Source of the DNA: Mobula hypostoma | Taxonomy: Eukaryota | NCBI RefSeq assembly: GCF_963921235.1 | Contig: NC_086097.1 | Coordinates: 55,182,001 to 55,246,000, forward strand | Direction of reading: 5' to 3' | Length of the DNA: 64,000 nucleotides | Part shown: positions 14,523 through 64,000 of the stretch, piece after piece | Layout: the number at the start of each line of letters is the position of its first letter | Position numbering within the stretch: position 1 is the stretch's first letter | Made by a program: the position numbers and the translations under genes | The notes under the pieces: generated by a model | What the model was told of the DNA's origin: nothing | Databases searched by the model: none | The model's input: the letters and a program-made list of their open reading frames with translations, nothing else

Positions 14523-16128
14523 CAGTAAAAGTTTGGGCACCCCGGTCAAAATTTCTGTTACTGTGAATAGCTGAACGAATCAAAGATGACCTGATTTCCA
14601 AAAGACACAAAGTTAAAGATGACACATTAATATTTTAAGCAAGATTACTTTTTTATTTCCATCTTTTACAGTGTCAAAATAACAAAAAAGGAAAAGGGCC
14701 CAAAGCAAAAGTTTGGGCACCCTGCATGGTCAGTACTTAGTAACACCCCCTTTGCCAAGTATCACAGCTTGTAAACGCTTTCTGTAGCCAGCTAAGAGTC
14801 TTTCAATTCTTGTTTGGGGATTTTTGCCCATTCTTCCTTGCAAAAGGCTTCTAGTTCTGTGAGATTCTTGGGCTGTCATGCATGCACTGCTCTTTTGAGG
14901 TCTATCCACAGATTCTCGATGATGTTTAGGTCAGGGGACTGTGAGGGCCATGGCAAAACCTTCAGCTTGCGCCTCTTGAGGTAGTCCATTGTGGATTTTG
15001 AGGTGTGTTTAGGATCATTATCCTGTTGTAGAAGCCATCCTCTTTTCGTCTTCAGCTTTTTTACAGACGGTGTGATGTTTGCTTCCAGAATTTGCTGGTA
15101 TTTAATTGAATTCATTCTTCCCTTTACCAGTGAAACGTTCCCCTTGCCACAGGCTGCAACACAAGCCCAAAGCATGATCGATCCACCCCCGTGCTTAACA
15201 GTTGGAGAGGTGTTCTTTTCATGAAATTCTGCACCCTTTTTTCTCCAAACATACCTTTGCTGATTGCAGCCAAAAAGTTCTATTTTAACTTCATCAGTCC
15301 ACAGGACTTGTTTCCAAAATGCATCAGGCTTGTTTAGATGTTCCTTTGCAAACTTCTGACACTGAATTTTGTGGTGAGAACACAGGAAAGGTTTTCTTCT
15401 GATGACTCTTCCATGAAGGTCCTATTTGTGCAGGTGTCGCTGCATAGTAGAACAGTGCACCACCACTCCAGAGTCTGCTAATTCTTCCTGAAGGTCTCTT
15501 GCAGTCAAATGGGGGTTTTGATTTGCCTTTCTAGCAATCCTATGAGCAGTTCTCTCGGAAAGTTTTCTTGGTCTTCCAGACCTCAACTTGACCTCCACCG
15601 TTCCTGTTAACTACCATTTCTTAATTACATTACGAACTGAGGAAACGGCTACCTGAAAACGCTTTGCTATCTTCTTATAGCTTTCTCCTGCTTTTGTGGG
15701 CATCATTTATTTTAATTTTCAGAGTGCTAGGCAGCTGCTTAGAGGAGCCCATGGCTGCTGATTATTGAGACGAGGTTTGAGGAGTCAGGGTATTTATAAA
15801 GCTTTGAAATTTGCATCACCTGGCCTTTCCTAATGATGATTGTGAACAAGCCATAGCCCTAACAAGCTAATTAAGGTCTGAGACCTTGGTAAAAGTTATC
15901 TGAGAGCTCAAATCTCTTGGGGTGTCCAAACCTTTGCATGGTGCTCCTTTCCTTTTTCCCCCACTCTAAAATTGTACAAAACAAAAATAATACACTAATT
16001 TTAAAATGTTGCAAAGAATGTTTCATCTTTAACTCTGACTTTTGGAGATCAGTTCATCTTCTACTCACTTAACTATTCACAGTAACAGAAATTTTGACCA
16101 TGGGTGCCCAAACTTACGCATACCACTG
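14523..16128 (-). mobile_element. Tc1 (DD34E, IR/DR type) transposon, full length, defective; copy 1
   Basis: TA on both sides, CAGT...CACTG ends, ~200-bp TIRs with repeated AAAAGTTTGGGCACCC, transposase motifs QQDNDPKH and SPDLNIIENLW. Confidence 0.93.
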
Positions 16129-16592
16129 TACATATGGTACATTTTCATTGCCTGTCTCCAATATTCTGTGACTCTCAGCATTCTGGTCATGCCCTCTACC
16201 ATCACGGAGGAGGTGCAGGAGCCTGAAGACCCATATTCAACAAATTGTGAACAGCTTCTTTCCCTCCATCAGATTCCTGGAATGGTCCAGGAACTCTAAC
16301 TTATTATTGCTTTTGTACTATTTATTTTGTAATTTAAAGCTTTTTATCTTTACTCTTGCTACAAAACAACAAATTTTCATCAGATAAGACAGTGGTAATA
16401 AGCTTGATTCTTATTCTGATGTGAACTGGTGCTGTTTTCAGTTGTCAACTAAAATTACTTGAGGTTTTTTTTTGCACTGCTTTTTTTTCCCCCAAGTACT
16501 GTTGCAAATTTTATAGTCTAATCCCATAATTTGAACTTTAAATTTGCAAAGAATCATTTCTACAATTGTAATCCCTAAAATATTTCATTCAG

Positions 16593-40636: not shown

Positions 40637-43170
40637 AAACAGAAAACCTACAGCACAATACAGGCCCTTCGGCCCACAATGCTGAGCCGAACATGTACCT
40701 TAGAAATTACTTAGGGTTACCCATAGCCCTCTATTTTTTTCTAAGCTCCATGTACCTATCCAGGAGTCTCTTAAAAGACCCTATCATATCTGCCTCCACC
40801 ACCGCTGCCGGCAGCCCATTCCGCACACTTGCCAGTATCTGTGAAGGGAAAAGAAAACCTTATCCCTGACATCTCTTCTGTACCTACTTCAAAGCACCTT
40901 AAAACCATATCAGCCCTGGGAAGAAGCCTCTCACTATCCACATGATCATTGCCTCTCATCATCTTATACACCTCAACCACATCACCTCTCATCATCCGTT
41001 GCTCCAAGGAGAAAAGACTGAGTTCACTCAACCTTTTCTCATAAGGCATGCTCCCCAATCCAGGCAACATCCTTGTAAATCTCCCCTGCACCCTTTCTAT
41101 AGTTTCCACAACCTTCCTGTAGTGAGGTGACCAGAACTGAGCACAGTACTCCAAGTGGGGTCTGACCAGGGTCCTATATACAGTGGCATGCAAAAGTTTG
41201 GGCACCCCTGGTCAAGATTTCTGTGATTGTGAATAACTAAGCGAGTAAAAGATGCCCTGATTTCCAAAAGGCACAAAGTTAAAGATGACACATTTCTTTA
41301 ATATTTTAAGCAAGATTACATTTTTTATTTCCACCTTTTACAGTTTCAAAATAACAAAAAAGGAAAAGGGCCCAAAACAAAAGTTTGGGCACCCTGCATG
41401 GTCAGTACTTAGTAACACCCCCTTTGGCAAGTATCACAGCTTGTAAATGCTTTCTGTAACTAGCTAAGAGTCTTTCAATTCTTGTTTGGGGGATTTTCAC
41501 TTATTCTTCCTTGCAAAAGGCTTCTAGTTCTGTGAGATTCTTGGACCGCATTGCACTGCATTTTTGAGGTCTATCCACAGATTCTCGATGATGTTTAGGT
41601 TGGGGGACTGTGAGGACCATGGCAAAACCTTCAGCTTGCGCCTCTTGAGGTAGTCCATTGTGGATTTTGAGGTGTGTTTAGGATCATTATCCTGTTGTAG
41701 AAACCATCCTCTTTTCATCTTCAGCTTTTTTACAGACAGTGTGATGTTTGCTTCCAGAATTTGCTGGTATTTAATTTTACTCATTCTTCCCTCTACCAGT
41801 GAAATGTTCCCCGTGCCACAGGCTGCAACACAAGCCCAAAGCATGATCGATCCACCCCAGTGATTAACAGTTGGAGAAGTGTTCTTTTCATGAAATTCTG
41901 CACCCTTTTTTCTCCAAACATACCTTTGCTCATTGCGGCCAAAAAGTTCTATTTTAACTTCATCAGTCCACAGGACTTGTTTCCAAAATGCATCAGGCTT
42001 GTTTAGGTGTTCCTTTGCAAACTTCTGACACTGAATTTTGTGGTGAGAACACAGGAAAGGTTTTCTTCTGATGACTCTTCCATGAAGGTCATATTTGTGC
42101 AGGTGTCGCTGCACAGTAGAACAGTGCACCACCACTCCAGAGTCTGCTAAATCTTCCTGAACGTAAATGGGGGTTTTGATTTGCCTTTCTAGCAATCCTG
42201 TGAGCAGTTCTCTGGGAAAGTTTTCTTGGTCTTCCAGACCTCAACTTGACCTCCACCATTCCTATTAACTGCCATTTCTTAATTACATTACGAACTGAGG
42301 AAACAGCTAACTGAAAACACTTTGCTATCTTCTTGTAGCTTTCTCCTGCTTTGTGGGCATCATTTATTTTAATTTTCAGAGTGCTAGGCAGCTGTTTAGA
42401 GGAGCCCGTGGCTGCTGATTGTTGGGACAAGGATTGAGGAGTCAGGGTATTTATAAAGCTTTGAAATTTGCATCACCTGGCCTTTCCTAACAGTGACTGT
42501 GAACAAGCCATAGCCCTAACAAGCTAATTAAGATCTGAGACCTTGGTAAAAGTTATCTGAGAGCTCAAATCTCTTGGGGTGTCCAAACCTTTGCATGGTG
42601 CTCCTTTCCTTTTTTCCACTCTGAAATTGCACAAAACAAAAATAATACACTAATCTTGCTTAAAATGTTGAAAAGAATGTTTCATCTTTAACTTTATGAC
42701 TTTTGGAGATCAGTTCATCTTCTACTCACTTAACTATTCACAGAAATGTTGACCATAGGTGCCCAAACTTTTGCATGCCACTGTAGCTGTAACATTACCT
42801 CTTGGCTCTTGAACTCAATCCCATGATTGATGAAGGCCAATGCACCGTATGCCTTCTTAACCACAAAGACAACCTGCACTGCAGCTTTTGAGTGTCCGAT
42901 GGGTATGCACCCCAAGATCCCTCTGATCCTCCACACTGCCAAGAGTCTTACCATTAATACTATATTCTGCCATCATATTTGACCTACCAAAATGAACCAC
43001 GTCACACTTACCTGGATTGAACTCCATCTGCCACTTCTCAGCCCAGTTTTGCATCCTATCAATGTCCCGCTGTAACCTCTGACAGCCCTCCACACTTTCC
43101 ACAACACCCCCAACCTTTGTGTCATCAGCAAATGTACTAACCCATCCCTCCTCTTCCTCATCCAGCTCAT
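40637..43170 (-). mobile_element. CR1 LINE 3' portion, interrupted by Tc1 copy 2
   Basis: ORFs 42857-43102 (WAEKWQMEFNPGKC) and 40771-41205 (TLVRPHLEYCAQFWSP). Confidence 0.88.
41181..42783 (-). mobile_element. Tc1 (DD34E, IR/DR type) transposon, full length, frameshifted; copy 2
   Basis: TA|CAGTGGCATGCAAAAGTTTGGGCACC ... GGTGCCCAAACTTTTGCATGCCACTG|TA; ORFs 42089-42430 (GRPRK) and 41524-42195 (VLWTDE, QQDNDPKH, SPNLNIIENLW). Confidence 0.95.
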
Positions 43171-53329: not shown

Positions 53330-53810
53330 CCAAGTAGCATAATGCACAACTAAGTGCTTTTGCCTCACAGGCTCTGGCAACTCATGCTCAATCCTGACTT
53401 TCAGTGTTGCCTGTGTGGAAATTGCACACTCACCTTGCGACTCTGTCTCCACTTCCTTAAAAAAAATTTGTTTTGGTGGATTCATTGGCCCTCGTGTGTA
53501 GATAAGTGATAGAATTCAAGAGATGGGTAAAGATGAGAATGAGAATTTCTTGTTTCTTTGTCCTCACTCTCTGAGTTGATGAGTTGACTTCAGCATGTTT
53601 GTCTGTTTAAATGTGCAAGTTATATTATTTATTGGTCATGCTTAAAATTTAGATCATGGAACAAAAAGAAAAGGAAGCTGAAGAGATGCATGCAATGTTG
53701 CAGTTAGAACAGTCTATTAGTCTAAGATTAGTATTTTGAAGGAATAAAAGTGCTTTATGGTTGGCACTGACTTCTTTGGCTGAAGAGCTTTTTCCATGAC
53801 AATGTATCCA
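53330..53810 (+). mobile_element. Decayed V-SINE/HE1-like SINE interrupted by a duplicated KTN1 segment
   Basis: tRNA-like head (GCCTCACAG...TCAATCCTGAC), TGTGTGGAAATTGCACA central motif, CR1-like tail at ~53750-53810. Confidence 0.5.
53653..53739 (+). pseudogene. KTN1: Partial duplicate of kinectin exon 29 (pseudo-exon or alternative last exon): IMEQKEKEAEEMHAMLQLEQSISLRLVF*
   Basis: 53653-53709 matches 54201-54257 with 2 substitutions, preceded by a copied acceptor; TGA 53737-53739; AATAAA 53743-53748. Confidence 0.85.
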
Positions 53811-54200
53811 TTTATTTCTCACACTACAAGAAGTAAATTTGCATTATACTGAGCCAAGACTATTCAGTTGACAGAAGTATAGAGGCAGTGAACAAAATCA
53901 TCATGTATTTTATTAATTTCTGGGATATTTTGGTCAAGTAGAACCAGTGGAACTACAAACAGGAATGAATTGAAACCCTGGTTGGTCAGTTTGTCTTTTT
54001 GCAAAGGAGTACCTATCGTGCTTGCTTTGAATAATACGTTCAATTTTTAACATCCCCTTAAATCTATTTTCTTGGTTCTTTGCTCTCTCTCTCTGTCTCT
54101 CTCTCTGTCTCTGGGCATTTGAGTTGATAAATTGACTTCAGGATGTTTATGTGTTTAAATGTGCAAGTTGTATTATTTATTGGTCATGTTTAAAATTTAG

Positions 54201-54290
54201 GTCATGGAACAAAAAGAAAAGGAAGCTGAAGAGATGCATGCAATGTTGCAGTCAGAATGCGAGAAGTACAAAACGGTACTTGCGGAAACG
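54201..54290 (+). CDS. KTN1: Kinectin exon 29/33: VMEQKEKEAEEMHAMLQSECEKYKTVLAET
   Basis: ag/gtaagc; 90 nt, phase 0-0; ECEKYK.VLAET motif. Confidence 0.96.
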
Positions 54291-57786: not shown

Positions 57787-58051
57787 GTGAGTCATATGAA
57801 GTCAGCTGACTTCATAGCCTACTATTTTCTTCTGCTTAACTGAAGTATACACTTTCTTTAGGATTGTTACAACTGCAGAAATTTAACTGAACTGATGGTG
57901 ACCTTGCAATGTCTGAACTTTTCATGTTTAAAAGTAATTTCTATCACAACAATCAAAAAGGCTTAAAACTGCAACAATGTATTAACCTACTTTAAATATT
58001 TATACAACCATCCCAGATACAGATTAAACTAGATTTTAAATATAATTTCAG

Positions 58052-58135
58052 CTCAAAGTTCTATTGACTGAGTTACAGAAAAAACTTGATGATTCTTGTG
58101 CTGAAGCAACAAAGCAGAATGAAGAACTAAATTTG
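58052..58135 (+). CDS. KTN1: Kinectin exon 33/33: LKVLLTELQKKLDDSCAEATKQNEELNL
   Basis: cag/gtaaga; 84 nt, phase 0-0; LLTELQKKLDDS..EA..QNEELNL. Confidence 0.96.
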
Positions 58136-58599
58136 GTAAGAAAATCATTGTAACTATGTTCATTTTTCCCCTTAAAAGATGTTTCATAGATTTAATGTAA
58201 GTGGATATTCGTACACCGTGTGCCCTAGAGCAACAGAAATGCTACAAAGATCTACAGTTGAGGCAACATCTTTCCCCAGATGCTGTCTGATCGGAATTCT
58301 TCTGACTTCCTTAATATTTAGGATTTGCAGCATCTGCCGATTTTGTTTATTTTCATGCCCTGTACTGATTTGCCTTCCAATTAATACATCAAGTGTAAAT
58401 GGAGTTAAATCCTTTGATTAGAATAAACAGTCACATTTGATGAGATGATTCAACACATTTGTAGTTGCATTTAAACTGTGTTGACCTGTTTTCATTGGAA
58501 GTAAAATCACACCTAGTGTTGCCCAATGTGAACATTCATAATCAGGGTGTAGTCCAATAACATTTTAAGCACAATTAAATTGGCAATGCTAATTTTGAT

Positions 58600-60070
58600 A
58601 TTAAACAGGGACTTTCAAAAGTTAATTGTGGAAGGCTGTTTACTGGAAAAGGGACATCTGGCAAATGAGACTTTTAAAAGTGAGATAGCTCATGTTCCCG
58701 GTAGAGTGAAAGACGAGGCTGACAGGAGTTAAAAGAGGTGTTTGTCAGGTATAGGCAGCTGGGATCAAAAAATCTTTTGAAGAGTATAGGGGTGTATAAA
58801 CACCTGAAGAGGGAAATCAGGAGAGCAAAAAAGGTCATAACTTTCACAGACAAGTTGAAGGAAAATCCTAACATTTTGCAAATATATTTAGGACAAAAAA
58901 GTAACTAGGGAGAGAATAGGGCTCCCTCAAGATCAATGAGGTTTTCAATGTGTACAGCCACAGGACAGGTGAGGGATCTGATACTAATATATCTTCTCTT
59001 TATTTATCATGAGAAACCCATGGTTGCTGAAGAACCTGGGGAAATTAGTAGTGATATCTTGGAGAGCCCACATTACGTAAGCAGAGATACTGGAAGTCTT
59101 AAAACCCACAGGTTAATAAATCCCCAAGACTTGATCGGGTGCACCCTGGGACATTGAGGGAAGCTAGAGAAGAAATTGCGAGGCTGCTAGTGGAGATGTT
59201 TGTATCATCAATAGGCATGGTTGAGATGCTGAAAAATTGGAGGGTGACTAATGTGCCTTTATTCAATACTAAATGTTGTGCTTTTATTTAAGAAAGGCTA
59301 CAATGTTATACCTTTATTCAAGAAAACTTATAAGAAAAAGCCTGGGAACAGCAGCCCAGAAAGCATATCATCAGTGTTTGATATGTTGTTGGATGGCATT
59401 GGAAAGGCAAGGAGAGTTTGTATGGTTTTGGTCATGGGAAATTGTATCTCACAAATTTGATTGAACTTTTTGAAAAAGTGACGGAGCAGCGCAGTAGACA
59501 TTGCTTACATAGACCTCAGCAAAGCTTTTGGTAAGGTACTGCATTATAGGCTGGTCCAGAAAATTAGATCACGTGGGACTTAGGGCAAACTAACCATTCG
59601 ATGTCATGGCTATTTTGAAGAGACACCAGATGGTGGCAGAGGGTTGTTTCTCTGTAGTGGAGGCCTGTGACCAATGTTATGCTGGATCCTTTTCTTCTTG
59701 GTCATTTCTATAAACAGTCTCCTTGAGAACATGGCTGGCATAGTCAGTACAACTTCAAATGACACTAAATTTGGTGATATAGTGGACAGTGAAGAAGACG
59801 ATGGGATCTTGAGCAACAGGGCTGAGGAATAGCACCTGGGATTTAAATTGGGATAGATACGAAGTGTCGCATTTTGGTAAGACAAACCAGGTCAGCACTT
59901 GCAGAGTAAATGGTAGGGGAATGTTGTAGAATGGAGAGACTCGGTGAAGTGGGTATAAGTTCCTTGAAAGTGGTAACATAGGCGAGGTGATGGGAGGAAA
60001 GCATTTAGCCTCCATTGGTTAGGATATTGAGTATGGGAATTGTTACAGCTTTACAAGTTGTTAGTAAGGC
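58600..60070 (+). mobile_element. CR1 LINE, highly decayed; appears to resume at ~61020-61370 and in tail pieces around 62855-63530
   Basis: Remnants NVIPLFKK..KKKPGN; collinear with 31620-33800. Confidence 0.65.
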
Positions 60071-60077
60071 CATTAAA

Positions 60078-61000
60078 GTCATAAAGTAATACAGCAAAGA
60101 AATGGGCCCTTAAGCCCAACTCATCCATGGTGCCCTCCAAGCTAGTTCCATTGGCCCAGGTTTGCCAATATCCCTCTAAACCCCTCCTTTGCATGTACTA
60201 TACAAACGTCTTTCAAATGTTGTTATTGTACCACTTTTCCTGGCAGCTCATTTTGCATATGTGCTAACCGCTGTGTGAAGAAGCTGCCCCTTCAGGTCCT
60301 TTTTAAATATTTCTTATCTTACCTTCAACTTGTCCTTTAGTTTATAATCTCCCTTCCCTGCAAAAAAGATTCTGTGCATTCATCCTATCTGTAACCTTCA
60401 TGATTTTGTACACTTCTGTAAGGTCATCCCTCAGTCTCCTCTTTTCCAAGGACTAAAGTCCTAGTCTCTCCCCATACCTCAGGCTCTTAAGTTCTGGCAG
60501 CATCCTTTCATATCTTCCCTGTGCTCTCTCTAGTGTAATGATGTCTTTCCTATAACAGGGAATCAAAGCTGTACACAATTCTCCAAGTGTGGTCTCAAGA
60601 GTCTTGTACAGATCCAATAGAATGTCTCTAATATACTCAATGCCCTGACTGATGAAATGCCTTCATCACCCTGTCTGCCTCTGACCTCTGACACTGCTTT
60701 CAGCAAACTATGCACCTGCACCGGTTCTGCTAGGTTCCTGTCCCACAACGTTCCCCAGGCAGGCACTGTATAAGTCCTACCCTGATTTGACTTACTAAAA
60801 TGCAACACTTTTCACTTATCTTAATTGTAAGCAATTTGCCAATTGTTGCCCACTTACCCATCTAATCAAGATCCCCCCCCCCCCAGCAATCTTTGACTTT
60901 CGTCACTGGCAATGATACCACCTAATTTTAGTATCATCCCCAAATTTACTAATCGTATTTTGTATGTTAAAATCCAATGCATTTAGCTAAATGACGAACA
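60078..61000 (-). mobile_element. CR1 3' portion inserted in opposite orientation
   Basis: ORF 60563-60808 LHFSKSNQGRTYTV...LLRPHLENCVQ. Confidence 0.7.
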
Positions 61001-61374
61001 CTTGCCACATAATTCGAGATTTGGAATACCTGTACTGCATTCAGTTCTGGTCATTCTGCTATACGAAGAGTATCATTAAACTGGAAAATCTGCAAAAAAA
61101 AAGAGGAAAAACAACTTATGATGTTGTCACCAGGACTAGAGGGTTTGAGGAATAAAGAAAGCTGGATAGACTAGGACATTTTCCCCCAGGAACATTGGAA
61201 GTCGAGGGGTGAGAGTTTTATGAAATCATGAGAGGCATGGGCAAATTGAACAGACAGTCAAGGGGAGTCCAGAACAAGAGGGCATGGTTTTAAAGTGGGA
61301 GGGGAAAGATTTAAAAGGATCCTGAGAGCCAACTTTCACATAGGGGGTGATGGATAAATAGAACGAGCGCTGAC

Positions 61375-62851
61375 CTGGCCCACCTGGCTTGTTATTTGAA
61401 TAACAAAGGACAGTTCTTGTCGGAACATTGCAGTCCACACAGAAGTTGATGTAATCAGTGATGCACTGTGTTAGCCCATCAGTATCCTCTCCATGTGGCT
61501 CACAGAGTGCCTGCCAGTCTGTCACCTCAAAACAACCCTGGAGCGCCTCATAAGCCTCCTCCGACCATTTCCTCACTGTCCTTGAGGTTGCAGGTTTACT
61601 CTTCACCAGAGGCACGTAGCAGGGTATTAGATGCACCAGGTTGTGATCTACCAGCCCCGACTAGGAATTGAGAATGCCATTGTCTACCTGCTGAACCGTG
61701 ACTACGCCCACCTGGACAAGCTAGCAAGCACTGTGAGGGTCATGTTTTTTGACTTCTCCAGTACGTTCAACACCATCCGCCCTGCTCTGCTGGGGGAGAA
61801 GCTGACAGCGATGCAGGTGGATGCTTTCCTGGTGTCATGGATTCTTGATTACCTGACTGGCAGACCACAGTACGTGTGCTTGCAACACTGTGTGTCTGAC
61901 AGAGTGATCAGCAGCACTGGGGCTCCACAGGGGACTGTCTTGTCTCCCTTTCTCTTCACCATTTACACCTCGGACTTCAACTACTGCACAGAGTCTTGTC
62001 ATCTTCAGAAGTTTTCTGATGACTCTGCCATAGTTGGATGCATCAGCAAGGGAGATAAGGCTGAGTACAGGGCTACGGTAGGAAACTTTGTCACATGGTG
62101 TGAGCAGAATTATCTGCAGCTTAATGTGAAAAAGACTAAGGAGCTGAGGAGAGCTAAGGAACCGGTGACCCCTGTTTCCATCTAGGGGGTCAGTGTGGAC
62201 ATGGTGGAGGATTACAAATACCTGGGGATACGAATTGACAATAAACTGGACTGGTCAATGAACACTGCGACTGTCTACAGGAAGGGTCAGAGCCGTCTCT
62301 ATTTCCTGAGGAGACTGAGGTCCTTTAACATCTGTCGGACGATGCTGAGGATGTTCTACGAGTCTGTAGTGGCCAGTGCGATCATGATTGTTGTTGTGTG
62401 CTGGGGCAGCAGGCTGAGGGTAGCAGACACCAACAGAATCAACAAACTCATTCGTAAGGCCAGTGATGTTGTGGGGATGGAACTGGACTCTCTGACGGTG
62501 GTGTCTGAAAAGAGGATGCTGTCCAAGTTGCATGCCATTTTGGACAATGTCTCCCATCCAGTACATAATGTACTGGGTGGGCACAGGAGTACATTCAGCC
62601 AGAGGCTCATTCCACCGAGATGCAACACAGAGCGTCATAGGAAGTCATTCCTGCCTGTGGCCATCAAACTTTACAACTCCTCCCTTGGAGGGTCAGACAG
62701 CCTGAGCCAATAGGCTGGTCCTGAACTTATTTCCTGGCATAATTTTCATATTACTATTTAATTATTTATGGTTTTATTACTATTTAATTATTTATGGTGC
62801 AACTGTAACGAAAACCGATTTCCCCTGGGATTAATAAAGTATGACTATGAC
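61375..62851 (+). mobile_element. Young Rex1/Babar LINE, 5'-truncated with a 5' inversion (61375-61642 on minus)
   Basis: Same-frame ORFs 61631-62185 and 62195-62713 (FFDFSSTFNTI, GAPQGTVLSP, KFSDDS, YKYLGI, SRLYFLRRL) split by one TAG; tail AATAAAGTATGACTATGAC; upstream linker region encoded on the opposite strand. Confidence 0.88.
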
Positions 62852-62944
62852 ATTGACTTTTAAAAGACAGGTACATAGATAGAAATGGCTTCGAGAGAGA
62901 TAGGCCAAACACAGGCAAATGGGATTAGCAGTTGGGTAACTTGG

Positions 62945-63469
62945 TGTATGGGGTGTCTAGGGAGGGGTAGCTCCTCTGGTGGGGGGGCCTGCCGTGCCCT
63001 TTTTCAGGGCTGCTCATCCACCTTTGGTCCCCACCTGGCGCTCAACTCTCACCTGTGGCTCCAAATAGCTGTAACACGCACAGTAGCCACACCCCAGTAA
63101 ACTGTCTCAGCAGACGGGCCAAACCAGGTGAGGGTGGCCAGCGGGTCTTCGACCTTCGGTGAGGTAGGGGGTTTGTGTGTCCCAGCGTGTGAAATCTGGC
63201 CCTGGCAGATTGAGCAGAGGAGACCGATTAATGGTCGAACGGTCAAGAAGGCAGGCCAGCAGGCGTTTGTGGAGCGCTAAGAGCATGACAAGGCACTTAA
63301 ACGTCCTGGTCATCCACGGCAAGAGGTGGTGATCTCTTTAAACTCACCTGGCAGAAGGCAAAGGCAAACCACTGCTGTAGCCTGCCAAGTACATGATTTC
63401 CCAATATGGCAAAGCGGCGTGGAGGGAAATCGTCCACCAACTGGAAATTCCAGATGCGACCTAACAATG
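62945..63469 (+). mobile_element. Non-autonomous RTE-derived (bipartite) retroelement
   Basis: GC-rich insert in a CR1 tail, TSD AACTTGG (62938-62944 / 63470-63476); GGCAGAAGGCAAAGGCAAACCAC and GATGCGACCTAAC resemble RTE/BovB-type UTR motifs; no ORF. Confidence 0.65.
62950..63134 (+). ncRNA. HDV-like (nested double pseudoknot) ribozyme fold, probably attenuated or dead in this copy
   Basis: P1 GGGGUGU/ACACCCC, P2 CUCUCACCUG/CAGGUGAGGG, P3 GGC/GCC, L3 starting UCC, P4 CUGUCU/AGACGG, J4/2 GCCAA, all in HDV order. Confidence 0.75.
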
Positions 63470-64000
63470 AACTTGGCAGACATGGACAAGTTGGGCTGTA
63501 GGGTCTGTTTCTGCACTGTATAGTTCCATGATTGTATTATTAAAGTCTGTAGCAATAGGAAGAAAAAAGTTATTTCCTAATAAGTAGAATTTGACAATCC
63601 TTTTACAGGATTTAGTTCAAGTTTATTGTCATTCAACCATACACACGTATGCAGCCAAATGAAACATCGTTCCTCTGGGGCCATGGTGCGAGTAGTCACA
63701 GTTTATATAATTATGATGTAGCACAACCCAGCACATACAATCGCAAGCGAAATACCCAGAGCTGAAAGAAGGTGTCAGATCACAGTAAATGGGTAAAAAT
63801 TGCAGGAGGGGAATTAACTAATTAATTTTTTGCTAAATGAAGTAAATACATTAATATACTGTATGTATGTTTGACTGTGCTTCTGTTAAATGCTTCCTTA
63901 ACCTAGCTAAGGTTTAGCTTGTTAAAACTTTTGTATTCTCTGTTCCTAACTTGATAGGGAAAATCTGATGAAGTTCCCAGTATTATTTGCATTTTAGAAC

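Follow-up and report, generated by a model that had tools for sequence, protein, structure and literature searches.

Positions 62941-63134 of the stretch of Mobula hypostoma DNA analysed here (GCF_963921235.1, NC_086097.1, 55,182,001-55,246,000 of the forward strand; 64,000 nt, hereafter the window) probably represent the decayed 5' HDV-like ribozyme of an RTE-type LINE, its sub-type being marked by a long P1.2, a P2 of 11 bp and an additional helix in L3. Intact copies of this ribozyme would cut 5' of the outer of two GGGGUGU strands, and the protein of a second LINE, Y, would copy the RNA. Sequence comparison further indicates that the element as a whole is a chimera, in which the ribozyme head of one LINE (X) sits on the body and tail of Y, a two-LINE origin that the initial annotation of this site had missed. 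The parts of the ribozyme, of the element and of its immediate surroundings are as follows.

58052..58135, + strand: KTN1 (kinectin) exon, the last inside the window
62938..62944, no strand: left target-site duplication (TSD) AACTTGG, whose final GG overlaps the clipped 5' end of the element
62941..62947, + strand: the family's P1 5' strand GGGGUGU, with predicted cleavage 5' of 62941 (from 5' ends and covariation)
62943..63321, + strand: head, the 5' UTR of the LINE RTE-X (ribozyme plus about 190 nt), 84-89% identical to four LINE copies
62950..62956, + strand: second GGGGUGU, the P1 strand of the initial annotation and in the family the base of the J1/2 helix (P1.2)
62951..63043, + strand: long J1/2 hairpin (P1.2) with short linkers on either side, formed in 11 of 12 sequences with the outer P1 enforced
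63046..63056, + strand: P2 5' strand of an 11-bp helix, 5 of 11 pairs changed on both sides
63057..63059, + strand: P3 5' strand GGC
63060..63066, + strand: canonical-looking part of L3, with U20, C21, C22, two variable bases, G25 (A63065 here; G in 69 of 72 other copies) and U
63068..63084, + strand: hairpin inserted in L3, with a 5-6 bp stem (3 of 4 pairs compensatory) and a variable loop of 7-9 nt
63086..63088, + strand: P3 3' strand GCC
63089..63095, + strand: P1 3' strand ACACCCC
63096..63097, + strand: P1.1 3' strand, GG in the family and AG here (CpG decay)
63102..63117, + strand: P4 hairpin, strands 63102-07 and 63112-17, 4 of 6 pairs compensatory
63118..63122, + strand: J4/2 GCCAA, with the AA pair and candidate catalytic C63119 (role suggested by the HDV fold; 69 of 72 other copies also have C)
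63123..63134, + strand: P2 3' strand with C63124 bulged (from covariation)
63322..63411, + strand: body, the 5' UTR end of RTE-Y, a second LINE, reaching that LINE's first ATG (63406-08), 91-96% identical
63410..63469, + strand: tail, the last RTE-Y ORF codons, stop and short trinucleotide tail, 92-96% identical to four RTE-Y 3' ends
63470..63476, no strand: right target-site duplication AACTTGG, an exact repeat of the left

A double pseudoknot with a helix in L3

A direct sequence check recovered every strand quoted in the initial annotation, and the HDV order of P1, P2, P3, L3, P1', P1.1, P4, J4/2 and P2' is kept as a nested double pseudoknot. The proposal of an HDV-like double pseudoknot with an extra L3 stem was substantiated in that its pairings are present and both covariation and a covariance model place it far beyond chance. 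Across 12 aligned heads, 95.6% of cells were paired and 14 pairs had changed on both sides (two in the outer P1, five of 11 in P2, three of four in the L3 stem and four of six in P4), although these counts overstate the number of independent events because the rows are related, four being from the ray and three from one other family. None of 500 shuffles scored as high, and slid controls were 39-45% paired. With the misaligned outer P1 strand of L152 set aside, the only unpaired outer-P1 cells were the two T of the window copy. The expected covariation of the helices and of the L3 stem was thus observed for the outer P1, P2, the L3 stem and P4, and it also confirmed the register of P2 with the bulged C63124, since the 63055-63125 pair is G-C in eight rows and A-U in four. 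When RNAalifold was applied to the eight non-ray heads, it recovered P2, P3, the L3 stem and P4 unaided, and an older ray subfamily (11 matches) displayed compensatory changes in P4.

Across both strands of the window, a relaxed HDV descriptor permitting a long L3 matched this site alone, and in 768,000 Markov-resampled bases it had a single match. Using a covariance model built from eight non-ray homologs, we recovered 63042-63138 at 84.1 bits (E=7.8e-19), with the next best match at 13.1 bits and all E-values being rough. A pattern in which P3, the ends of L3, the P1.1 G's and J4/2 were fixed, while P1, P2, P4 and the L3 insert were left free, gave 68 matches in metagenomes, 12 of which are true homologs from about six lineages; the other 56 are chance matches to which the covariance model gave no score, and they were used as negative controls. 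By its construction, therefore, the search pattern makes P3, G25, the G preceding P3', the P1.1 G's and J4/2 invariant among the homologs. Rfam returned no HDV-type family for window positions 58000-64000 or for 10 loci, at thresholds up to E 10 and 5, and its drz-agam, HDV and CPEB3 models did not match the ribozyme. Pattern scans of viral contigs (1, 35, 1 and 0 stretches) and of prokaryote genomes (nine stretches) yielded no homolog and nothing significant with the covariance model, and neither a protein scan of viral contigs nor blastn against phage gave matches.

In HDV-type ribozymes L3 forms the active site, and it has been treated as a fixed loop of 7-8 nt. Across the homologs it instead spans 26-29 nt with a covarying stem, outside the short-L3 definition, and in the window copy it is 26 nt with a 5-bp stem (63068-72 and 63080-84); a descriptor with a 7-8 nt L3 found no match in the window or in six homologs. 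Closer examination of the loop revealed that its first seven bases keep the order U-C-C-N-N-G-Y and that the position directly after them holds the inserted helix, flanked by A on one side and G on the other (A63085 in the window copy). In the antigenomic HDV ribozyme, the base after the G25 equivalent (C29) is described as bulged out and poorly conserved (PMC3386971), and the sequence suggests that the L3 helix was grafted at this bulged position. U20 and G25 in L3, and C21-C22 facing the GG after P1', are present in the ray family and pattern-fixed in the homologs; J4/2 reads GCCAA or GCUAA, its C being kept in 69 of 72 ray copies and likewise pattern-fixed in the homologs.

RNAalifold additionally paired U63060 with the G at the 63085 position in all eight rows. 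This G, just before P3', could extend P3 via U20, which would disturb or compete with the U20-G25 pair, and both of the G's able to pair with U20 (at the 63065 and 63085 positions) are A in the window copy. Our text search of the literature on HDV-like ribozymes, including the accessible parts of PMC4035085, PMC4870747, PMC6326823, PMC13708176 and PMC6007223, turned up no report of a natural helix in L3; drawings of RTE ribozymes may already show such a stem, and an earlier description is quite possible.

A chimeric element and its decayed copy in a KTN1 intron

Sense orientation within a KTN1 intron, as originally proposed, is borne out by kinectin exons on the + strand on either side of the element. 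These exons run up to about 58135 within the window, the one at 23837-965 being 100% identical to two Mobula proteins, and KTN1 continues past the window end (G000:C1:55251577), so that the element is both intronic and sense. It was inserted in an older repeat, which we take to be a CR1-type LINE end, and the empty form with its flanks joined is present in contigs of a related run.

Several further features of the window were observed. A decayed LINE with an RT match, presumably Rex1/Babar-like, occupies 61226-62840 (+ strand); it has the orientation of the element and ends about 100 nt upstream of it, where it could furnish a read-through transcript. A 138-nt duplication (53572-53709 and 54120-54257, 93.5% identical) repeats the acceptor of a kinectin exon together with that exon's first 19 codons, lies 550 nt upstream of the real one and is a possible pseudo-exon. 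A 1.6-kb repeat in two copies (14527-16130 and 41192-42785, 92.8% identical) has terminal inverted repeats of about 200 nt and is probably a DNA transposon.

That the element is a high-copy non-autonomous retroelement, as initially suggested, is supported by its copy number and its LINE-derived parts. Excluding the window copy, the best 40 of 4,096 candidates are 89-91% identical, and an exact head 16-mer has 3,041 occurrences where the reversed control has 2, indicating at least 3,041 head copies. The parent LINEs X and Y, whose class labels we take to be RTE, BovB-like and Expander/AviRTE-like, each have one ORF, with endonuclease followed by RT and no separate ORF1 (the decayed copies having been read in pieces), and their proteins are 24% identical in the endonuclease and 31-32% in the RT. 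At ray and homologous loci alike, the heads precede endonuclease ORFs. The 3' end of X itself matches a second short family, B, and not the tail of the window family, while Y's own head differs from that of the window family, and neither the covariance model nor the descriptor found a ribozyme in it. Trinucleotide 3' tails are present, and TSDs of 8-14 bp were found in 18 of 33 copies examined. By the strict SINE definition a tRNA, 7SL or 5S head is expected; here the head is a LINE 5' UTR, and Rfam gave no match to those RNAs at 58000-64000. Y derivatives that are internally deleted and retain the native head (L206-L208, L210) and a tRNA-headed SINE with the Y body and tail (L006:1040-1310; ARAGORN, relaxed threshold) also exist, and together with the ribozyme-headed version they indicate that one 3' module carries three heads.

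Related elements show further combinations. Y derivatives at L206, L207 and L210 (~358-370) have a fixed 5' end and a GC-rich head that fits neither the HDV-like model nor the descriptor. Family B (L033, L035, L040-L042, L045, L046, L051, L058) carries the same ribozyme head on X's own 3' end, with several deletion junctions, and a bipartite element of similar build is present at L147, in another organism. At the latter locus the element is closely preceded by a long perfect inverted repeat (1228-1346), and its tail runs on into an intronless deubiquitinase (UCH) ORF (1833-2978); this ORF was considered as part of the element and rejected, as a family-B-like tail follows the head match at a distance of about 100 nt. 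At L061:2067-2805, a Y fragment is fused into an X copy at a short shared sequence, and X/Y junctions thus arise in coding parts too. Between groups of homologous heads the endonucleases are 28-37% identical and the ribozyme cores 72-79%, which may reflect either deep conservation or head swapping.

In the mechanism that we favor, an intact element copy would be transcribed within a host or upstream transcript, and its RNA would fold and cleave itself 5' of the outer GGGGUGU, C63119 serving as the putative general acid. The predicted cut would fix the element's 5' end, where ends are observed to cluster, and the Y protein, judging from the identity of the tails, would recognise the 3' tail and copy the RNA back. 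The family would have originated when the ribozyme head became joined to an internally deleted Y derivative, an ancestry indicated by sequence in an order of events that we infer. Counting against this reading, the ribozyme-less tail donor Y still has a fixed 5' end.

The initial annotation described the window copy as probably weakened; the lesions it pointed to are real, but the description understates the damage, as the core has three lesions including the loss of G1-G2. The first two G of 62941-47 are replaced by target T, leaving five of seven P1 pairs and a U-C mismatch at the first P1 position, which in the family and homologs is G-C in five cases, G-U in four and A-U in one. The second and third lesions are G25A (A63065) and one broken P1.1 pair (A63096), and the predicted family G was indeed found at 63065 in 29 of 29 other copies (69 of 72 in the wider set) and at 63096 in 23 of 29. 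In the antigenomic HDV ribozyme, the U23/A28 combination, the counterpart of U63060/A63065, is reported to lower k2 528-fold (PMC3386971), and the CPEB3 ribozyme is reported to work with one P1.1 pair (PMC9901934). With G1-G2 lost, G25 mutated and a P1.1 pair broken, the window copy is probably at best a very slow cutter and, as far as its sequence can tell, a near-dead, inert fossil. G1-G2 would have been lost at insertion, with G25 and the P1.1 pair following later. The predicted outer, inner and no-P1 states of this copy lie within 4.3 kcal/mol; a full P1 needs the inner strand, and the base of P1.2 is lost in consequence. The inner GGGGUGU (62950-56) is therefore a possible fallback P1 in this copy, and any residual cut would use it at the sacrifice of the P1.2 base.

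We considered whether this triple lesion had been selected, a cutting ribozyme in a sense KTN1 intron being harmful, and regard this as unlikely. Three critical lesions set the window copy apart from most of the 73 copies, 27 of which have none, 28 one and 13 two (the others with at least three being truncated or poorly aligned), and G25A recurs in only one of the 72 others. However, its divergence equals the family median (0.077), 18 of the 72 lack G at 62941 and 23 carry A at 63096. Head copies are also strand-balanced genome-wide (1518 + and 1523 -, a count that is not gene-relative), and a single locus cannot reveal selection for KTN1.

The 5' end and the choice between two P1 strands

The initial annotation took the inner GGGGUGU (62950-56) as P1, with cleavage and the element's 5' end at G62950 and a window copy that is slowed but working. 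We find this quite unlikely, given that the family begins with two tandem GGGGUGU strands, the first at 62941-47, and that its ends cluster there, 9 nt upstream, with no spike at 62950. Among 73 ray copies with the core, 49 start at 62941, nine at 62942-43 (the window copy among these), four at 62944-46, five at 62947-49 and six further in. The sample is biased toward full-length copies; the script had given 45 at 62941, four mis-anchored rows were moved by eye and two further loci without the core were left out. Genome-wide, 440 of the at least 3,041 head copies have no G at either upstream position tested, and we inspected 100 listed copies of these by eye: the start lies 5-6 nt ahead of the inner G in 51, at -4 in five, at -3 in 11, at -2 in nine and at -1 in four, compared with only three at the inner G itself (62950), eight further in, and nine that are ambiguous or carry indels. 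In two non-ray families (L142/L171/L184 and L147/L193), unrelated flanks likewise meet the outer G.

Inspection of these junctions brought additional variants to light. Some copies have 1-3 extra bases between the TSD and G1, the clipped copies listed include a further head subfamily without one base at the 62958 position, and in two of them the inner G-rich strand is shortened.

The pairing evidence points in the same direction as the ends. As a P1 5' strand, 62950-56 has no compensatory pairs and eight broken cells, compared with two compensatory pairs for the outer strand; its partner in 11 of 12 sequences is the J1/2 3' end, and no usable inner strand exists in L137 or L152. The predicted advantage of the outer P1 over the inner is 8-16 kcal/mol for 10 of the 11 other heads and 2.7 for the eleventh. 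G62950 was accordingly rejected as the family cleavage site, with 5' ends, covariation and clipped copies all favouring 62941. The inner strand does have points in its favour: in the window copy a full 7-bp P1 is available only through it, at a cost of 2.4 kcal/mol relative to the 5-bp outer form, an identical inner strand is found in four ray/other lineages, R2 ribozymes are reported with doubled P1 strands and two possible cut sites (PMC3774820), and CPEB3 is reported active with a single P1.1 pair (PMC9901934). Its use as P1 would nonetheless remove the P1.2 base, the loss of which is described as slowing Agam-2-1 (PMC4908430), and this would be added to G25A.

We strongly doubt that the HDV-derived fold no longer cuts, its L3 helix and U-G extension of P3 locking it into a protein-binding, translation or end-protecting role with the 5' end set by an internal promoter: the U63060-G63085 pairing is predicted in eight of eight rows, L1Tc Pr77 is reported to be both promoter and ribozyme (PMC3383444) and the tail donor without a ribozyme also has clustered 5' ends, but in three families the ends coincide with G1 of a covarying P1, and C63119 is kept in 69 of 72 copies, though copies decay neutrally. 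An internal promoter also finds no echo at the 5' junction, where, among 45 full-length copies, 24 have T before G1, 16 have A, four have G and one has C, with no cap-copying signature seen.

Implications and relation to known systems

Returning to the reading of a cutting ribozyme with the outer P1, a covarying L3 helix would, if active, call for a broader definition of the fold and offer a new place for grafting sensors or labels, and genome surveys would have missed a ribozyme class in animal retrotransposons. The family is also a high-copy vertebrate case of a non-autonomous element with a swapped-in foreign ribozyme head, beside tRNA-headed and native-headed versions, and as about a third of the sampled copies lack any critical lesion, the effect of intronic self-cleavage on host genes becomes testable at scale. 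More speculatively, and with less than even confidence, we suggest that these heads may form an undescribed active HDV-like sub-class that tolerates an L3 helix and is hidden from standard descriptors. Under this tentative extension, the head would have been swapped between distant LINEs and, in rays, would have replaced the usual head of a SINE-like module at many thousands of loci, some still cutting host pre-mRNAs, with the doubled P1 acting as a folding switch or as a fallback cut site for 5'-clipped copies.

The element is known in kind, since RTE 5' ribozymes, bipartite RTEs and hybrid ribozyme/tail elements have precedents, and what differs here is the L3 helix, which lies outside the short-L3 definition. 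Ribozymes of the drz-Agam-2-1 type are, we assume, linked to RTE elements. Ribozymes at RTE 5' ends are known (PMC6765202, PMC5786205), and in the mosquito Agam-2-1 ribozyme, P1.2 with short linkers and a 12-bp P2 speed cleavage by nearly three orders of magnitude (PMC4908430). The ray family shares with drz-Agam-2-1 the double pseudoknot, a structured J1/2 (P1.2), short linkers, a P2 of about 12 bp and its place at a retroelement 5' end; unlike it, the ray family has a covarying L3 helix in a loop of 26-29 nt rather than 7-8, and its first P1-like strand has another one 8-10 nt behind it (PMC4908430).

The CPEB3 ribozyme is likewise intronic, sense and endowed with a single P1.1 pair, but it is conserved at one locus, whereas the window copy is a decayed repeat without sign of conservation (PMC9901934). 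R2 ribozymes resemble the family in having two tandem P1-compatible 5' strands; in the ray, however, the element itself encodes the second strand, which is retained across lineages and serves as the base of P1.2 (PMC3774820). As in the bipartite RTE elements Bov-A, RTESINE1/2, WALLSI3 and MAR4, a 5' UTR piece is joined to an RTE 3' end, but theirs is the 5' end of their own LINE and that of the window family is a foreign ribozyme head (PMC5786205), family B being the ordinary bipartite case in the ray genome. The R2/R1 hybrid SIDEs of Drosophila (PMC3414825) also combine one LINE's ribozyme head with another's 3' end and are mobilised via the tail donor. In contrast to these, the ray element is dispersed in thousands of vertebrate copies, both of its parents are RTE-like, its head keeps about 190 nt of UTR past the ribozyme and its body includes the 5' UTR end of the tail donor.
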